A DNA stretch of 63,050 bases, filler included, from Globobulimina sp. (Eukaryota): the NCBI GenBank assembly GCA_003354225.1. It is 34 parts of 34 records of this genome, joined end to end, with 100 filler letters (N's around TTAATTAATTAA, not from the genome) between each part and the next. Parts side by side here need not be neighbours in the genome. Positions count along the whole stretch, not along the records: positions 1,860 to 3,618 come from PIVH01012272.1; 33 more parts are not named here. The stretch is one strand, 5' to 3'. A model generated the notes under the pieces. It saw only the letters and a list, made by a program, of their open reading frames with translations. It was not told the DNA's origin and ran no database searches. Shown here one piece after another: positions 1,860 to 59,438 of this stretch. A program made the translations under genes and the position numbers. Within the stretch, counting starts at the first letter, position 1. Each line of letters starts with the position of its first letter.

Positions 1860-1974
1860 TCTTGAGAAATATTGAATTTTATGTCAAATCGTTTTCACCA
1901 CCAATCTTAGAATATTTTTTTACATATTTCTATATTTTTTTTTTTTGTGTGGGAGCAAACCTGTGATTTTTAAA

Positions 1975-2779
1975 ATCATTCTCGATCATTCTCGATTCTA
2001 GCTATTTTCGAAAACTTGATTTAGTGGTCAATCCTTTCCTCAAGGCAAGTGTAAACTATTATTGTGTTTATTTGTGTGCCATCCATAACCATTATTTGTT
2101 ATTATTTGCACTTGGCCATGCACTAGGCCATCCATAACCATCCAATATTTGTCATTTTTTATCTTTCATCCAAATCTATATTTTATCCCCCTTTTTTCAT
2201 CTTTATTTTCTCTTTTTTTCCTTCAAATCCATTATCCCATCAAATTAAATTCAATTTAATCCAATTTATAATTCAATATCAACTCAATTAATCCAATTTA
2301 ATCAACATTCAATTAATTCATTTAACTCGAATACAATTTCCCATCATATATTTATTTGCTTGAATTTGGTGGTGTACGTACATTGCACGTGGTACATTGT
2401 CACCAAATAATCATTCATCTGATGACGCCGCCTCAGGGATTGAACCTGAATCTTCTGGGTACATATAACCAGTGCTCTACTTGAGCTAGGCGATTAAATA
2501 AATTGCTTTCACGTTGGTCATCTCAGTCTCATCTGGTTTGTTGACTTTGTTCTTCTTTTTTTGATTTTTATTCTTTGGGGTTTGATTGCTTTTGATGGTT
2601 TTGGCGCAGCATATTCCCTTAAAAGCTGTCCTGGTCTCGACTTTGTATCCAAACGTGGTTTTCTTCGTGCAACAGGTGGTGCAGAAGGTAGACTTTGCTT
2701 GTTCGTGGCCTCAGATTGTACGTTGCCATGTTCTGACTAGAAAAAAAAAGTTAGTTTATCGAGAATGATCGAGAATGAT
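1975..2779. mobile_element. Non-autonomous TIR (MITE-like) element of about 805 bp
   Basis: Perfect 22-bp inverted repeats ATCATTCTCGATCATTCTCGAT (1975-1996) and ATCGAGAATGATCGAGAATGAT (2758-2779); no long ORF inside; no clear TSD. Confidence 0.5.
2426..2495 (-). repeat. tRNA-like / tRNA-derived SINE-type element, copy 1
   Basis: Minus strand reads CGCC-TA-GCTC-AAGTA-GAGC-A-CTGG..CCAG-..-TCAGG-TTCAATC-CCTGA-GGCG. It has A-box and B-box-like motifs, but a short D loop and an irregular anticodon arm. Confidence 0.7.
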
Positions 2780-3120
2780 CTATTATGCAAATTTCATTTT
2801 TAGAAAGAACAAACAACCGCAGACCAAAAAAAAAGGTACGTCACCATACCAAATGATATTATTTGATTATATACCAAATATAAAGTTGATAGCACAAAGT
2901 TATGGCATAGTTGAATAATTCGAAATATTTCACAAAGCTATTGCACGAATCTCAAAACAAGGTCCAAGTGCAGATCCTGAATTCTTAGAACTAGTTAGAA
3001 GTCAGAATAAAAGGCATTAAAATTGTATGTGAAATAACAAGAAGCTTTGGGTTTATATCAAAATGTAGAGGATCCGGATGATGGATATGGTACAACAAAA
3101 GCTCAACAAGCAAATGAGGT

Positions 3121-3618
3121 TTAAAGTGCCTTCAAAATACATAAATATTTTTGTTGTCTGTCTTTATCTTTCGTTTTTTTCCAATATACAGCAAAAGCAA
3201 AAGCCACCAACACCATCACTATGCCAACTATAAATAAGTAAATCTTCATACCATTTCTTATGCTGACTCGCCATTTGAACATCATGTTTATAAAATAACT
3301 CCCGAGTATCCAACACATCGCGAGTGGAAAGACCATCGTCATTAAAATCAGCAAAATAAAATAATGCTTCATCTAAAACATGCTGCGGGAAATTATCAAA
3401 CTGCTTATCATGAATATCCTGCCACACCGCCCAGGCCAAATCAACATAGCCGTGCAACATAAAAAATAACGGATCGTTTGGGCTCCACGGGATTTGCATT
3501 TGATGTCCACCAACTATTCGATGTAAAGTACTGTGCGCAATGCTACACTCAGACGCATTGCGCGGATTACAGCCTTCGAGTTGCGCTCTGAATGAACGCG
3601 CACAGTGACTGGTATCCC
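3121..3618 (-). CDS. Tyrosinase-family protein, C-terminal fragment (CuB site) with an apparent frameshift before the TM anchor
   Basis: HSTLHRIVGGHQM...SPNDPLFFMLHGYVD is a CuB signature. The hydrophobic helix and basic tail (IYLFIVGIVMVLVAFAFAVYWKK) lie in a different frame. Confidence 0.8.
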
Positions 3619-5271: not shown

Positions 5272-5329
5272 ACCGTTACATTTAAAGTCAACTTATTCCT
5301 AAGAGGATCGCATGCCAGCGGCGTGGATT
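5272..5329. repeat. 58-bp dispersed conserved element, copy 1 (upstream of PFOR)
   Basis: 52/58 identical to 59254-59311. Confidence 0.85.
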
Positions 5330-5332
5330 TAT

Positions 5333-5461
5333 AAGAGCATCCGGTTTTCAGCGTCAGATTTTTATTGTTTCTGAGAAACGAAGGCAAACCTATATTATTT
5401 TTACCTTTATCAGTCACCAGAAACCTGAATAAAAATCTGACGCTGAAGACCGGATGCTCTT
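5333..5461. mobile_element. Small foldback/MITE-like element with 34-bp TIRs
   Basis: AAGAGCATCCGGTTTTCAGCGTCAGATTTTTATT versus the reverse complement at 5428-5461, one mismatch. Confidence 0.75.
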
Positions 5462-5577
5462 TTCTATCCCCTCTTGTNNNNNNNNNNNNNNNNNNNNNNN
5501 NNNNNNNNNNNNNNNNNNNNNTTAATTAATTAANNNNNNNNNNNNNNNNNNNNNNNNNNNNNNNNNNNNNNNNNNNN

Positions 5578-7622: not shown

Positions 7623-8771
7623 TTAAAAAAGAGACTGAAAAGGATAGTTTATTATTTCTCCTCTTCCTTTTTTATAAACCTTATTTTGTCTTTCATTGTT
7701 TTGTTTATTATTTCTTGATTTAACATTCGCAGCTGGTCTTGTTTGTTTTTGTAGCTTTTTGTTTCTATTTCTGAAATTATTCTGATTTGGTGAGAAATTA
7801 TTTTGTACATAATAAAATTGTTTGGTATTAACATAATGACAGTATACATATGGTTTAATATCAAACACGTAATGTTTATAACCACCCAATTGATCATACC
7901 CATCAATATGTTGTTGCACTGGCATTAAAAATGAACTCTTAACAGTATCATCATATTCATTTATCTTCCATATTGATTGAATATTATCATTTAATAATGC
8001 ATCAAAAATAGTAGCTGGCTGCACAAATAATAAACGACAATCTGTCCAAATATCACATGCTTCACATAAATCATTTCTATGCGGAGCATTTGGCTCATTT
8101 CGAGTGTTGCCTTTTTTTGGTTTGAGATCATATTTGATAAATCTTGCAGTATTACCACAATTTGCACATTTATATCTTGTTGGTGGTTTAAATGTATTTG
8201 GATCTAATAAACATATTCCAACCTTAAATACTCGGCCTTTGCAAATATGATTAAAACATTTAAAATAGCCAGAAACTGTGCAAATATGGACTCCAAATCT
8301 AGGATCTGGTTTTAATGCGCCACCACATACTACACAATCACCTGCTTCTTTTTCATCATCGTCAGGAATACCTTTACCATCTCGATATTGTTGAGAACTC
8401 ATTCGGATTAAATGTTTAATTACAGAAAGCGTGTCAGGATCATCAGTTTGAACTTGAAAACCAAAATAAGAATGAACATTATTATTACGCACTTCCCATT
8501 TACCACTGCCATGTTTAATAACATGGAAATCTCGATCAATAGCTAAAGATTTTGGCAATTTTGAAAGTAATTCTTGTGGTGATATATATTGTACGTTGAT
8601 TGATTCCTTGGAATTGCATTTAGCCTGTAAACAATACACGATTGCGTTATAAACTGCTGTCTCAACTTCATATTTTGCTTGATCCTCTTTACTATATTCA
8701 TATTCATCGCATGGTTCATCATACTCATATTCATCGTATTTTTCATCACATTCAAACATATTCTTCATCAT
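7623..8771 (-). CDS. 3CxxC-type (ZAR1/RTP-like) zinc-finger protein
   Basis: GYFKCxxxxC...KCANC...PHRNDLCEAC pattern plus an extra CVVC pair; acidic Y/D/E N-terminus. Confidence 0.65.
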   Translation of the reverse strand: MMKNMFECDEKYDEYEYDEPCDEYEYSKEDQAKYEVETAVYNAIVYCLQAKCNSKESINVQYISPQELLSKLPKSLAIDRDFHVIKHGSGKWEVRNNNVHSYFGFQVQTDDPDTLSVIKHLIRMSSQQYRDGKGIPDDDEKEAGDCVVCGGALKPDPRFGVHICTVSGYFKCFNHICKGRVFKVGICLLDPNTFKPPTRYKCANCGNTARFIKYDLKPKKGNTRNEPNAPHRNDLCEACDIWTDCRLLFVQPATIFDALLNDNIQSIWKINEYDDTVKSSFLMPVQQHIDGYDQLGGYKHYVFDIKPYVYCHYVNTKQFYYVQNNFSPNQNNFRNRNKKLQKQTRPAANVKSRNNKQNNERQNKVYKKGRGEIINYPFQSLF

Positions 8772-10771
8772 GTGTGAGAAAAGCAAGGTTGTTTGAGAAT
8801 TAGTTTTAGTAAAATCAATTTTTTTTTATATCACAGTCGCGAAAAGTCAAGTTGACGAAAAGTTTTTCTCGTAACTATCCAAGTTATGAAATTTTAGAAA
8901 CACTTGATTAAAAATCAACGTTTATTACAAAACCGAATCCAAAACAACAATTCCTTCGAGAGTACTAACATATTCCTCGCCAAACCCAATAGTATTTAAT
9001 ACATTTTTAACTTCCTCTTTCTTATCAAACATTTCCTTATTTAATTCCTTAATTTTATGTGATAATAATTTTAAAAATACAAATGCAATAAAACACCATG
9101 TTTTTGATGTAAATGTAGGAATAGCTTCATGTATATCAAATGTATGAATTAATAAATGAATATCATTGCAAACCATTGATATTAACATCGGTTTNNNNNN
9201 NNNNNNNNNNNNNNNNNNNNNNNNNNNNNNNNNNNNNNTTAATTAATTAANNNNNNNNNNNNNNNNNNNNNNNNNNNNNNNNNNNNNNNNNNNNTAGCCA
9301 AAAAATCTATGGGAGGAAATGACTATTTTTCACTTTTTTGCCTTCTAAAGTGATTTTTATGGTTAAATTTCGATATAATATGGACATGGAGCATAGACTA
9401 CTTGTTGTTAGTGGTTTAAAACAGTCTTTTCACGAATTTTCATAGGTTTTCATACCAAAAAAAACGTCAGTGCGTCAACACGAATTTGTGCATTTTTATA
9501 TTGTTTTATACATTGTGCGGACGGATTCTCCTAATCAGGCATGCTTACTTCGGTTTCAGCTGCTTTTCTTGACCCCCTTGTAAATCGTTTACTTGACTAC
9601 CTTCAACATTGAACCAATCAGACCATATCATATCGTTTACACTTGCCATTTCTTTCTCCGAATTAGTCCGATCAAAACTGAAAATATAAACTATATAAAC
9701 TAATTTGTAAAACATTATGACGCAATAATGTACTGTTCTGTTATCACTGGCCATTTCAAGAATGTGACTGTTAAAAATTAAAAAAAAGAAAAGCAGGAAC
9801 CACACGGCACTTACTGTATTTGTTCATTTTGTTGACTACCAAGTCCATATTGAATATTTCCTCCATCCGAGAGAACCGGTCGGTGACTGAAAAATGTATC
9901 ACATACATACGGTAAGTAGACTGTCAGTTCAGTATATATCAAATCAAAACATACAGTATGTACAGCACAACACAGTAATGTTTTTTAAGATCAAGTCACT
10001 GAGGGTGCGGGGTACTGTAATGGTTACTTTGATTACACAATAGCCTCTTCTCAACAGGACATACTCAATACCATAATTATTTACTATTACCACGCGGATG
10101 CATGGAATGGACAAGGACATTATGTAACCACGTCAAAATGTCGTGAAAACACAAAACTGATTGAGTAATAATGCGATCTATGAAGCAAGTGGCATGAATA
10201 CAAATAAATAAGAAGCAACAAAAATTGGCTTACGATGGATGAGCAGATCCAACAGTTGTATCCAAATCTTTGTCTCCTTGTATGACTGCCTTAAGTCTAA
10301 AAACGATGACAAAGGTTAAACTGTATATTACTATTTATTTATATACAGCTTCGCTTGCTTCAATCTTAGGATTAACTTTAATGCTTCATTCATGCCTTTG
10401 ACTAAATGTTTGAAGCAATCGCGAAAAGGGGCACCTCGATGGTGTGGAGCCATAATGAGCAAAGTACAGTAAAGTCGTTAAAAATGAAATAGTTATAATT
10501 ATCGTATGAAAGCGTTTTATAATTTAATTTTGATAAATACTGTACTTGGCTCCTTTTGGCTCCAAGCCATCGATCTGTATCTGACTGTTTCAGCTTTACT
10601 ATAACTCCTCACTTCACAGACAAAAAGTAGAAACTGTTGTGGACGTGGCTACACAACAGAGAGTGGCCCACTTAGACTTCCCAAAAGTAAAACTAATTGG
10701 AAAACAAAGTTATATGGCGATATAGGCAAAAAAAATGGAAAAGCATAATTTTTTCATGAAATTTCACTACT

Positions 10772-10852
10772 TGGGTTTTGTGTTTGGGTTTTTGGGTATG
10801 TGGGGGTTAAGTACTTGGGTGTGGGTATTGGGTTTTGGGTATTTGGGTTTTT
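10772..10852 (+). repeat. Degenerate T(n)GGG telomere-like / G-quadruplex-prone tract
   Basis: About nine GGG runs separated by short T-rich spacers. Confidence 0.55.
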
Positions 10853-11219
10853 ACTACTTGTTGCCACTTTAAAATATATTGCAAGAGAAAGACAGTCCAA
10901 CATATACAAACATACTACAACATTATTCATCCATTCGCCCGTCAATGGCGCGTGGGTCGTAGCGCCATGTATCTTTTTCGCTTTTTGGCGTCTAAAGTGA
11001 TTTTTATAGTTAAATTTCGATATAATACAGTCAGGGCATAGTTGCGTTTGGGNNNNNNNNNNNNNNNNNNNNNNNNNNNNNNNNNNNNNNNNNNNNTTAA
11101 TTAATTAANNNNNNNNNNNNNNNNNNNNNNNNNNNNNNNNNNNNNNNNNNNNACACCCAAATGGTTTAACAATTTCCTCATGGTTTTATTTGTCCGCTCG
11201 CTACCTGCGACCAACGCGC

Positions 11220-12838
11220 ATCGTTGCCAATAATAGCAATATTAATGACATTTATTCTGTGCTCCAACCAACACCGGATATTGCACTGACGTCGAGTTAT
11301 ATGTAGTAATTGTGGCCTCTTGTCATGCGATACAGGGACATATGCTGATTACACTCCGTGTTGTTGGGGTTACGCTGCTGATTATGGTGCCTCTGGTTTT
11401 GAATGTTGCAAAGCCAGCTGCCAAAGCAATGCGTGTTGGACAAATTGTCCCTTTACAGGCGGTACCTTAGTACGGCAATTACCGCAAAATATACAGCCAA
11501 ATGTAATCTATTGCAACACAAATATATTGACCGCCACTACAAACGGGGCAAACGCTGCTGATTATATCGCGTATTACTCATTAACCACATCAGATCCATA
11601 TTTGTCAGGTGTTAATATCCAATTTGACTCATGCGATTCGTCCTTTGATACTGAATTATATTTATTTGATGCAACTGGCACATTGTTACAAAATAACGGC
11701 GACTCTGATGACTGTGGTTTTAACTCACATCAATCGCAATTAATTTATGCAGACACCGGCTCTCAAACATATATTATTAAACTCATTGGCGTCGATGATT
11801 CACAATATGGCAGTTATTATATCAATGTGCAGTGTACAGCAATCAATACATTTCAACCGACCAAATTGCCCACTTCACCCCCCACAAATTTACCCACTTC
11901 AACCCCTACAAATATCCCATCATTAATCCCAACCAATATCCCTTCAAACTCGCCCACAAATAATCCTTCATTAATACCCACCAATGGCCCTACAATAATA
12001 CCTACGTTTTCTCCGTCAATAATACCAACCGTTTCTCCTTCATTAATACCAACTGTTTCTCCTTCATTTGAACCTACGATCTCTCCTTCATTAATACCAA
12101 CAAATGTCGCTTCCAAAACCTACGAATATGCCGATTGATATATCGAGTTTGAAGGAAGCGGTGTCGAGGAATAACTATACTGTGCCGGCTATTTTTATCA
12201 TAGTGTTTTTAATTATTGTTTTAAGTGCGATTAGTATATGTTTATTATGCTATTATTGTAAAAAACGGAAAGTAGATAAAATTGTAACAAATAATATTAT
12301 TAATGGACAAACAGATGTTATTCGTATGGAAACAGTGAATAGTTTGTCTCATATCGATTCAAATGAACTTAATATTGGTGATTTACCCATTGATGAAAAT
12401 GGATATGTTTATAATGATGAATCTGATGACGAAATTGGAGTAAATACAAAAGGTATAGCGGAGAATTTAAATGAAGCACATTTTAATATGAAAAATAGAG
12501 AAAACGATGAGGTATATTTATGGTTGAATGGTGTGCATATGGTTGGATGTGGAGAATATTATGATTTATTTATGCGGAGTGGATATGTGACATTAGAAAT
12601 GATTAAAGGCATCGATGGAGAACAGGTATTATATGATTTGGGTATTAGTTTAAGTGCGCATGTTGAGGCATTGTATGAAGCGATTTTAAAATTAAAAGTG
12701 GAATATGAAGGGAATGTGGATGTGGATGTGAATGATATTCAGTATGTATATGAAGGTGGTGGCGGTACAGAAGAAGAAGGGGATGATGCGGATGATGATA
12801 TTGTTAATTATATTAATGATCAGCATACTACAACCTAG
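11220..12838 (+). pseudogene. Cell-surface protein (Cys-rich, PPC-like domain, PT/PS mucin repeats, TM, SAM), frameshifted
   Basis: DSCDSSFDTELYLFD domain, PTxxP repeats, TM (IFIIVFLIIVLSAISICLLC), SAM-like EVYLWL...LGI. There is a frame change near 12104-12138 and a disrupted signal-peptide region. Confidence 0.6.
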
Positions 12839-57442: not shown

Positions 57443-57954
57443 CGTATTGTGTTTGGAGTTTTTGGTGCTCGATAAAACTTGANNNNNNNNNNNNNNNNNN
57501 NNNNNNNNNNNNNNNNNNNNNNNNNNTTAATTAATTAANNNNNNNNNNNNNNNNNNNNNNNNNNNNNNNNNNNNNNNNNNNNTCACATGAATTTATCAGA
57601 TGCATGCATATGGCAATTATATTCAAGAAATGATATGACTGATTTCGAAACGATGCACCTTTTTTATTTTGTCTGCCAAATTCGCATTTTACAACTTTTG
57701 GATAAATAAAAAATCGTACATCATTTTGAAATCTGTAACATTTGAATTAAATAAAAATAGACTAAAAAAGAAAAAAACACTCCTATCATTATTAGCATTT
57801 ATTATTTTTACCAATGATGTTTATTGAACAATTGCAACACTTGAAATTAATGGAAACTTTGTAATAAAATAATGCATGAAACGAGACGATATAAAAAAAT
57901 AATACAAAAAATACAAATTAATTAAATGTACGTATAATTAAAAAAAGAAGTTAA

Positions 57955-59208
57955 TTAATTCTCATTGTTAGCTTTTTTTTTTGCAAAACGAATACAAATA
58001 TTTATAAAACATTGATTGCAGCGATGGCATAATTTTTCATTTATACACTCTCCAAAATGGAATAACATAATGGTTGAAACCGACCCGACCAAAGAATCAA
58101 TACTTGCCATATTCATTGGTATCAATAATGATAATCGTGTCTGTGGTAACAATATAAAACGAAATGCAAACCAACAAAACGTCACTAAAAGCACCGAAGC
58201 TGATGTCACAAATACTAAAACTGCATTTTTTGCTGTCAACTTTAAAAAAGAAACACTGAGATTTGCGTCTTCAAAAGCTGAAGACGACCGATGTTGGCTA
58301 TGTCGGCTACGCATATCCTCTGCGATTTCATTTGCATTTGATACAGAATCGTTTGATTGATAGGAATGAATATATAATGTTGGCATATTGCTGTCATGCG
58401 GCGTGATTTTTATCTCACTTTGCGATTTTTGTTCTGACGCTTTAATTTGAATTTGCTTTGGCACTTTAATTAATTGTATAGAATGTTGGCATAACGTTAA
58501 AAATAATAATCTGCGACTAAACATATATAGTAATATTAGTGTAATGATTTGATATGAAATGCGAAATGAATTGAAGGCAATTTCTGCAATGACTAAGTTG
58601 CCAAAATACACACCAAAATATGCAACAATTACGGAAATGACACCCATTACGGTGACAAAAACGTTTGTGGCTATAAATGTTTTTCGCGGATATTTGGAGA
58701 ATGAACCTTTGAATGCATAGAATAAGCGACCATTAAAAAACCATATTATTGCTATTGTGCCAATATACCAGCAAACGGTGGATAATATGCGTAGAAAATG
58801 AGAATAATGATTTTTATAAAATTTTTCTGTGGGTTGATATGGATCGATTACTAAATGAATACAATACAATGCATTGAAAAAACAACAGCCGACATTGCCG
58901 AACACACAAACCACCGATGAAAGCTTTATATAGTAATTGATATGTGGTTGATGCTCGGGACTGGATGCTTTGCTCATTCCTTTGCTCAATATTTGTTGGG
59001 CTGCCTCAGGCTTTGAACCTGAATCTCTGGATATATCTATCCAGTGCTCTACTTGAGCTAGGCAGGAGTTTGAGGACTGTGCATTGGATTGAGATTGCAT
59101 TTGCAATTCACAATCATCCAATGGCTGACTTTGCGGCTCGCTTTGAGACGAACGACAACATGACTGCATGTTGGACATAACAGAGGCAAAGTTTTTCATG
59201 TTAATCAT
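57955..59208 (-). CDS. 7TM GPCR-like membrane protein (true start/TM1 uncertain)
   Basis: About six TM helices; GRLFYAF, KNAVL, IDSLV and C-terminal CxxC. Confidence 0.7.
   Translation of the reverse strand: MINMKNFASVMSNMQSCCRSSQSEPQSQPLDDCELQMQSQSNAQSSNSCLAQVEHWIDISRDSGSKPEAAQQILSKGMSKASSPEHQPHINYYIKLSSVVCVFGNVGCCFFNALYCIHLVIDPYQPTEKFYKNHYSHFLRILSTVCWYIGTIAIIWFFNGRLFYAFKGSFSKYPRKTFIATNVFVTVMGVISVIVAYFGVYFGNLVIAEIAFNSFRISYQIITLILLYMFSRRLLFLTLCQHSIQLIKVPKQIQIKASEQKSQSEIKITPHDSNMPTLYIHSYQSNDSVSNANEIAEDMRSRHSQHRSSSAFEDANLSVSFLKLTAKNAVLVFVTSASVLLVTFCWFAFRFILLPQTRLSLLIPMNMASIDSLVGSVSTIMLFHFGECINEKLCHRCNQCFINICIRFAKKKANNEN
58998..59067 (-). repeat. tRNA-like / tRNA-derived element, copy 2, in frame within the 7TM ORF
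   Basis: Minus strand CTGCC-TA-GCTC-AAGTA-GAGC-A-CTGGA-TAGATATA-TCCAG-AGAT-TCAGG-TTCAAAG-CCTGA-GGCAG; homologous to 2426-2495. Confidence 0.75.
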
Positions 59209-59253
59209 TAAGCTTCATTTCATTAGACTATGGCCAACTAAGTTTTTTTTGAG

Positions 59254-59311
59254 ACCGTTACATTTAAAGTCTACTTATGTCTAAGAGGATTGCTTGCCAG
59301 CAGCGTGGATT
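59254..59311. repeat. 58-bp dispersed conserved element, copy 2
   Basis: 52/58 identical to 5272-5329. Confidence 0.85.
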
Positions 59312-59438
59312 AATAAATAGTCCTCACTCTATTGCCTCNNNNNNNNNNNNNNNNNNNNNNNNNNNNNNNNNNNNNNNNNNNNTTAATTAATTAANNNNNN
59401 NNNNNNNNNNNNNNNNNNNNNNNNNNNNNNNNNNNNNN

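Follow-up and report, generated by a model that had tools for sequence, protein, structure and literature searches.

A highly repeated, dispersed family of non-decoding tRNA-like elements in the foraminiferan Globobulimina sp., probably SINE-like retroposons

Two small cloverleaf-forming sequences on unrelated contigs of Globobulimina sp. (assembly GCA_003354225.1) raise the question of whether they are tRNA genes, genes for another small RNA or copies of a mobile element. The window, that is, the whole stretch of DNA analysed, comprises 63,050 bases in 34 separate contigs of 1756–1759 bp each, arranged in order of length and joined via N44-TTAATTAATTAA-N44. The GC content of the contigs (26–43%) is that of an AT-rich eukaryote, and eukaryotic domains are found on the long ORFs (PFOR, NOG1, Dis3 OB, FKBP, serine carboxypeptidase, WD40 and SAM). 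A first-pass annotation had proposed either a tRNA-derived SINE or other mobile family or a Pol III noncoding RNA family selected for its fold. The data support this proposal and favour the mobile-element reading; a lineage-specific, high-copy family of tRNA-derived, SINE-like retroposons in the foraminiferan nuclear genome is, on balance, the probable identity of the sequences.

Both window cloverleafs (copies 1 and 2; Table 1) lie on the minus strand and span ∼70–74 nt. They are 87.7% identical across 65 bp (E 1.9e-16, blastn among the window contigs), and the similarity ends where the cloverleaf ends. The flanks of the two copies are unrelated, with 342/1000 and 259/1000 shuffles scoring equally well, and leader homology 5′ of copy 1 is no better than that of shuffles. 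The two similar cloverleafs on unrelated contigs are thus real. A covariance model (R1), built from four copies and run over the 63 kb with filters off, matches only copies 1 and 2, and the next best match scores 12.9 bits.

The fold of lowest energy is the cloverleaf in both copies, with z values of −1.90 (copy 1) and −3.96 (copy 2). As the first-pass annotation had it, the copies share the D arm GCTC-AAGTA-GAGC, with its 5-nt loop, and the T stem TCAGG/CCTGA, here read on the minus strand. Copy 1 is composed of a 5-bp acceptor stem, an 18-nt hairpin arm, a 5-nt variable loop and the T arm TCAGG/TTCAATC/CCTGA, which is followed by TCA. The middle arm of copy 2 uses 18 nt to form 7 bp and a 4-nt loop, and that of copy 1 adopts the same geometry with one U.C mismatch. 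The arm spans 10 to 25 nt among the relatives, and the anticodon loop is, as had been noted, not 7 nt long. The variable loop of copy 2 contains a 1-nt deletion that is absent from most copies; an extra T follows 59025 in 4929 of 6308 depth units in sequencing run X1. The D-arm region TAGCTCAAGTAGAGC is invariant in 6/6 copies, and the B-box-like pattern GGTTCRANNCC (a consensus from general background) matches exactly the two copies in the window, consistent with the A- and B-box-like motifs proposed earlier and with a putative internal promoter. A search with a mis-spaced D-arm pattern returned zero matches and is uninformative.

The tRNA-like elements are not working tRNAs. ARAGORN called no tRNA gene in the window, and a search of the window with Rfam at the gathering threshold returned nothing. 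In E-value mode, the Rfam tRNA model (RF00005) detected copy 1 only, at 29.0 bits (gathering score 29; E 0.058), over 2429–2492 and model positions 4–67; copy 2 was unlisted. Similar to canonical tRNA genes, the elements have a four-arm cloverleaf, U8-A9, a 5-nt variable loop with G46 and a 5-bp T stem closing a 7-nt TTCAAxx loop, and the similarity among copies is limited to the mature-tRNA span. Unlike canonical tRNA genes, both window copies have an acceptor stem of just 5 bp instead of 7 bp, the D loop is AAGTA (5 nt, no GG) in 9/9 close copies, the 7-nt anticodon loop and U33 are missing, and the sequence is repeated about a thousand-fold. Canonical tRNAs of the host are readily detected, as illustrated by six ARAGORN calls with long, GG-containing D loops on one 1339-nt contig (L017), and ordinary tRNA genes are present in another foraminiferan, as far as the accessible text of PMC3079666 describes. 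What was found is therefore neither an ordinary tRNA gene nor a pseudogene in few copies: the elements draw no ARAGORN call in the window, are highly repeated and dispersed, and have helices that covary.

No parent tRNA was identified among six canonical tRNA rows compared (three from L017, two from L014 and one from L024; seven other ARAGORN calls on these contigs lay outside the alignment), and the best identity was 0.60–0.68. A mitochondrial tRNA or NUMT origin was rejected and is unlikely because foraminiferal mitochondrial genomes carry no tRNA genes, according to the accessible text of 10.1101/2023.02.03.527036. Outside the window, ARAGORN labels three tRNA-like repeats (L007, L010 and L012) as tRNA-His(atg), tRNA-??? 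and tRNA-Lys(ttt), respectively.

The abundance of the family was estimated by aligning contigs of four sequencing runs to 58400–59338 at a likeness of at least 80%, and the figures given are from the best run, X1 (235 contigs). Summed word depth over the tRNA-like core is 8532–12430, as opposed to 8.3 over the flanking gene, which puts the element at ∼1000–1500 times the flanking level. X1 may derive from the very sample that gave the window. Summed depth is not a copy number, and we take the ratio only as showing that near-identical copies number on the order of a thousand; the window itself contains two copies per 60 kb. Further copies were recovered from other sequence sets. An exact-pattern scan of metagenome contigs yielded two (L001 and L002), and a scan of prokaryote genome bins yielded two sub-kilobase contigs (L003 and L004) from a bin labelled as a gammaproteobacterium. 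Viral contigs gave no match to the 22-nt core. When the 3.1-Mb bin was searched with R1, at least 21 matches were obtained from the 150 of 988 candidates that were scored. Four of them are canonical tRNAs by ARAGORN, which among the bin loci occur only in L014, L017 and L024, and the remainder are tRNA-like repeats on small, AT-rich contigs that are evidently misbinned eukaryotic DNA. The bin holds many such AT-rich contigs of <2.4 kb carrying tRNA-like repeats (L005–L013, L015–L023 and L025) together with the eukaryote-type six-tRNA cluster of L017 and is therefore contaminated with host DNA. Altogether, seven close copies and ∼14 copies from sister subfamilies were gathered beyond the window. 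The claim of a dispersed family is borne out by the nine close copies, which have unrelated flanks, and by the depth.

The copies fall into at least five subfamilies (g1–g5; Table 1). In g1, a leader (module B) precedes the tRNA-like core (module C), and B, C and a short CAACAAA tail form one composite repeat unit of ∼233 nt (58992–59224) with the cloverleaf at its 3′ terminus. The units of copy 2 and L006 align over 234 bp, and both flanks differ. Module B is also present in L001 and L002, and L005 is 5′-truncated and retains the last ∼40–50 nt of B. The two g1 lineages are 79–85% identical in the leader and 91–97% identical in the core. The 3′ ∼65 nt of module B fold as a long hairpin. The four g2 copies are solo cores with unrelated upstream flanks, and all begin with (A)TTGTCGCY or TCGCC. 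The sister subfamilies g3–g5 have the same short D arm combined with other, fully paired acceptor and T stems. The g4 copies have a very short middle arm and similarity limited to the unit, and T runs immediately follow three of the five copies; in these features, g4 resembles Pol III genes more closely than it does retroposed copies.

Table 1. Locations of the tRNA-like copies, associated modules and neighbouring genes, with summed depth in run X1 and the composition of the subfamilies
Feature	Location	Strand	Remarks
Copy 1, solo tRNA-like element (g2)	2423..2497	−	Contig 2 (1860–3618); R1 94.9 bits
Copy 2 (c32), tRNA-like module C (g1)	58996..59069	−	Contig 32 (57583–59338); R1 100.1 bits
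Module B, ∼155-nt leader fused to module C	59070..59224	−	97.4% to L006
End of short A-rich tail (CAACAAA) closing the repeat unit	58992..58995	−	Similarity among copies stops here
Conserved part of multi-pass membrane-protein gene	57958..58960	−	Homologues in foraminiferal transcriptomes
Tyrosinase ORF, C-terminal part	3167..3616	−	Pfam PF00264, E 5.9e-15
Flanking gene			Summed depth 8.3 (X1)
Module C (tRNA-like), depth segment	59008–59071		Summed depth 8532–12430 (X1)
Leader B, proximal part	59072–59135		Summed depth 2539–4364 (X1)
Leader B, distal part	59136–59199		Summed depth 80–210 (X1)
Module A, second unrelated repeat	59232–59327		Summed depth 13984–19285 (X1)
Subfamily g1	c32, L001, L002, L005 (= place of L004), L006		Leader B + core C, then CCCCAACAAA
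Subfamily g2	Copy 1, L007 (= place of L003), L008, L009		Solo cores
Subfamily g3			Acceptor GTACGCA/TGCGTAC, T stem ACAGG/CCTGT; head + at least 150 nt of common body
Subfamily g4	L013 85–152, L020 585–651, L021 754–820, L022 1185–1250, L025 87–152		Acceptor GTGATGA/TCATCAC (perfect 7 bp), T stem TTGGG/CCCAA; 66–68 nt
Subfamily g5			T stem GTAGG/CCTAC, long hairpin arm; then GGAAT repeats

The 3′ end of the close copies is sharply defined. The triplet after the 3′ acceptor strand is CCA in six of the nine g1 and g2 copies, TCA in two and CAA in one, and no discriminator base precedes it. The tail is CAACAAA in g1 and a longer A/C-rich stretch in L007 and L008; copy 1 and L009 have no clear tail, and L001, L002 and L005 run into minisatellites. 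Degenerate minisatellites of the TATTTATTATGG type and GC-rich palindromes (GGCGGCGAAGCCGCCGC) flank many copies, with minisatellite sites at L001 236–518, at L002 1–283, downstream of the element in L006 and in the flanks of L020, L022 and L025. L001 and L006 have ∼466 bp of minisatellite sequence in common, at 84%.

Both window copies reside near genes. Copy 1 is located ∼670 nt downstream of the tyrosinase ORF on the same strand. Copy 2 is adjacent to a gene for a multi-pass membrane protein, the homologues of which are 32–45% identical and conserved only from approximately residue 85. These relatives come only from eukaryotic transcriptome sets, one of which is labelled Ammonia sp., a foraminiferan, and an assignment to Pfam DUF2975 was dropped with a score under the cutoff. 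A 3′ splice site CAG at 58961–58963 is probable: in two runs, each from a different study and guessed to be RNA, contigs cease to match at 58961 and 58964, beside the gene-strand CAG. One of these contigs continues with 1301 unlike letters, and a DNA contig runs on past the splice-site region. These contig ends hint weakly that the exon begins at 58960, which would make copy 2 intronic or upstream. The two runs guessed to be RNA contribute short contigs of low depth (2–11) at 59015–59183 and none across 58976–59007.

The acceptor stems of the window copies differ at pair 4-69 (C-G versus U-A) and at pair 3-70 (U-G versus C-G). The first-pass annotation had taken these differences as compensatory, and they are as described; however, the two copies alone provide a single double change plus a wobble and do not reach significance. 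With L001 and L002 added, 89.1% of the cells are paired and one pair is changed on both sides, which 122/500 shuffles reach. The values for six copies are 89.9%, two pairs and 54/500 shuffles. In the nine g1 and g2 copies, 96.8% of the cells are paired, three pairs are changed on both sides (12/500 shuffles), and the six cells changed on both sides and the covariation score are each reached by 0/500 shuffles, in an alignment fitted to the model and so favouring pairing; controls in which the pairing was slid gave 0–1 pairs. Across 23 tRNA-like copies, with canonical tRNAs left out and the alignment likewise fitted to the model, 95.4% of the cells are paired, 13 of the 21 pairs are changed on both sides, and 77 cells are so changed. 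The paired percentage, pair count, cell count and covariation score are each reached by 0/500 shuffles, a control that is inflated by the relatedness of the sequences, and slid controls gave 2–7 pairs; the count of further pair types is unremarkable (221/500 shuffles). The check for significant covariation thus had a positive outcome in the shuffle tests on the 23 copies. Covariation of the paired stem positions is thus moderate inside the family but strong when subfamilies are compared. The subfamilies could in principle stem from different tRNAs, and descent from one altered ancestor is argued because the short D arm is common to them.

The covariation speaks for a second explanation, according to which the copies are multi-copy genes for a non-decoding tRNA-like small RNA. 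Pol III would make this RNA, RNase P and RNase Z would trim it, and selection would act on its fold; the copies would comprise functional genes and their decayed duplicates. The helices covary beyond the needs of a promoter, an observation that an independently functional RNA fits equally well. Moreover, G.U pairs fit the sense strand only, the sense folds are mostly better than the antisense folds, the short D arm is near-invariant across subfamilies while compensated replacements have exchanged the acceptor and T stems, and the T runs behind g4 copies are in keeping with such genes. However, the roughly thousand-fold depth far exceeds the need of any known small-RNA gene family, copies lie within genes or a short distance upstream of them, and an unrelated leader is joined to one copy. 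Pairs are also broken in individual copies (U.U in L002 and in L008, in addition to the U.C of the copy 1 hairpin), the hairpin arm is variable in length, and the alignments in which the changes were counted are biased toward pairing. We therefore regard small-RNA genes as unlikely to account for the family, although they are the best of the alternative explanations.

The retroposon reading would account for the repetition as follows. The family would descend from a tRNA or tRNA-like gene, the ∼70-nt core of which retains the D-arm and T-arm regions of an internal promoter and the cloverleaf helices, the decoding features having gone. Master copies would be transcribed by RNA polymerase III from the internal boxes, and a reverse transcriptase from another locus would convert the RNA into DNA, which would then be integrated at new positions. 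Solo copies such as copy 1, which start 2–4 nt before the cloverleaf and end in CCA or TCA plus a short A-rich tail, would result. One subfamily, represented by copy 2, would bear the core 3′-terminally in the composite unit, often with 5′ truncation, and copy 2 would have been inserted just upstream of the membrane-protein gene exon, where its 1-nt deletion happens to leave the frame open. Consistent with truncation, depth declines from C through proximal B to distal B, forming a gradient toward the 5′ end of the unit (Table 1).

Several observations do not fit a textbook SINE. The first-pass annotation had named target-site duplications as a check, and the outcome was negative: in 0/13 copies does a flank repeat exceed the length expected from shuffles (54/300 in the best case), in a test in which the exact element ends are uncertain and short duplications could escape. 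No reverse transcriptase or endonuclease domain was found in 46 scanned ORFs, out of the 76 in the window that reach 110 aa. In most copies, the head is not followed by a body, and the gene-like appearance of g4 also counts against retroposition. Against the SINE reading, the tRNA-like part of g1 is 3′-terminal, and this composite subfamily needs another explanation because an internal promoter at the 3′ end could not transcribe the leader.

Compared with known tRNA-derived SINEs, such as AfuSINE2 of the tRNA-related SINE families that PMC5063351 describes in Aspergillus fumigatus in its accessible text, the foraminiferal element is likewise a short unit related to tRNA in which the putative promoter regions of the D and T arms are retained. 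It is also present in high copy, dispersed in unrelated contexts including beside and inside genes, and divided into subfamilies; some copies have A-rich or simple-repeat 3′ ends, and the sister subfamily g3 has a head and a common body. It differs from these SINEs in the missing target-site duplications (0/13 copies), in the prevalence of copies consisting of the head only, in the position of the g1 tRNA-like part at the 3′ instead of the 5′ end of the unit, and in a cloverleaf that is kept by compensatory changes across subfamilies and has a plain hairpin in place of the anticodon arm.

In a variant of the retroposon reading, which we consider rather unlikely, the fold itself would be selected, and a tRNA-like structure at the 3′ end, in place of a 5′ promoter head, would serve the family in copying or in end formation. 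Its basis is that compensatory changes have rebuilt the helices in at least five subfamilies and that the odd short D arm is fixed. A 3′ tRNA-like tag for a reverse transcriptase or for RNase P/Z would fit the 3′-terminal cloverleaf, the CCA and the 5′ truncation and is a candidate reading of them. Two precedents are available for comparison. The mascRNA of the MALAT1 type is a tRNA-like processing element at the 3′ end of a long transcript that is cleaved by RNase P and RNase Z. The foraminiferal element is likewise a non-decoding cloverleaf with an altered anticodon arm, and in the composite unit it is located 3′ of a leader, where RNase P cleavage would set the leader 3′ end; its copy number is far higher. 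Neurospora mitochondrial retroplasmids and plant-virus TLSs have 3′ tRNA-like structures as polymerase start sites. They would be matched by the tRNA-like fold and CCA at the 3′ end of the unit and by the fixed 3′ and variable 5′ ends, but the foraminiferal element has no discriminator base before the CCA and no linked polymerase gene was seen, and its copies are nuclear and dispersed.

Spread at the DNA level, in which an old tRNA-derived piece would be contained in a DNA-transposon or foldback fragment or in a module spread by recombination among minisatellite-rich regions, is the next alternative to the retroposon reading. Copy 1 is enclosed by a perfect 22-nt inverted repeat at 1975–1996 and 2758–2779 of contig 2, the arms of which each consist of a doubled 10-mer and stand 761 nt apart. 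The contigs have a mosaic make-up of the short modules A, B and C and minisatellites, and the failure to find retroposon-type target duplications also suits this explanation. In addition, L023 (1003 nt) has g3-like copies at both ends (1–44 and 946–1003), inverted and with matching inner sequence; this pair may reflect either a genuine foldback or a palindrome created in assembly. However, no further occurrence of the 22-mer was found in the window or the 25 loci, and the element itself is not bounded by inverted repeats, unlike a MITE or other DNA transposon. The mobile reading by retroposition is favoured since it agrees better than a DNA-level repeat with a 3′ end that is constant, 5′ truncation that varies and ends that are A-rich or CCA-like. 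We judge a DNA-level repeat to be distinctly improbable.

Module A, one of the repeats that accompany the tRNA-like element, is a second, unrelated repeat, likewise short and dispersed. It is found at 59225–59338 of contig 32, where it abuts the B+C unit at 59222–59224, and at 5272–5334 of contig 3, 47–109 nt upstream of the PFOR ORF; the two occurrences match over 63 bp at 88.9%. Its depth in X1 exceeds that of the tRNA-like element (Table 1), and no fold signal was detected in it. Fragments of module A (L016 595–626 and L019 360–397) are situated 85–190 nt upstream of two g5 tRNA-like copies. Directly beside module A in contig 3, a near-perfect hairpin of ∼133 nt (5331–5463) scores 42.6 bits against a plant microRNA precursor model, far under the gathering score of 117, and is probably a foldback repeat, not a miRNA.

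It can hardly be credited that the copies are ordinary tRNA pseudogenes or that a conserved motif of a protein-coding sequence takes up the fold fortuitously: copy 2 does lie within a 419-codon open frame and the Rfam tRNA model does touch its threshold for copy 1, but all copies share the derived 5-nt D loop and hairpin arm, features that are not those of tRNAs and so indicate descent from one altered ancestor instead of separate tRNA genes, and four points speak against the coding reading. First, the window copies differ by a 1-nt indel that places their 5′ halves in different frames. Second, the extra base, which is in the majority in X1 and also present in L001, L002, L005 and copy 1, creates a stop codon in the T arm. 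Third, the homologous membrane proteins lack the N-terminal stretch and begin with a transmembrane segment that is missing from the 419-codon frame. Fourth, the 75-residue leader-plus-core peptide had one marginal, low-complexity match (E 6.3e-4) among 1.84 billion representatives, and a protein reading of leader plus core was rejected. A ciliate-type stop-codon reassignment, considered for a frame through copy 1, was dropped, as the frames of the two copies agree only downstream of the indel.

The retroposon reading would make the element, most likely, an ordinary kind of thing, a tRNA-derived mobile element, in a group where it is seemingly undescribed. A literature search, with the R. filosa repeat annotation outside its scope, found neither SINEs nor tRNA-like repeats described for foraminifera, the nuclear genomes of which are barely characterised. 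The accessible text of PMC13746701 describes a foraminiferal nuclear draft genome as highly fragmented, with ∼30% repeats. A family as abundant as the present one helps explain why such assemblies break into kilobase contigs. For annotation, such repeats will inflate tRNA counts in genomes of this kind and, as contig 32 illustrates, also give rise to spurious open reading frames. The repeat is at the same time a handy marker of eukaryotic contamination, as contigs that carry it sat in a bacterial bin. Should the fold prove to have a function, the family would offer a natural experiment on conservation of the tRNA shape without decoding.
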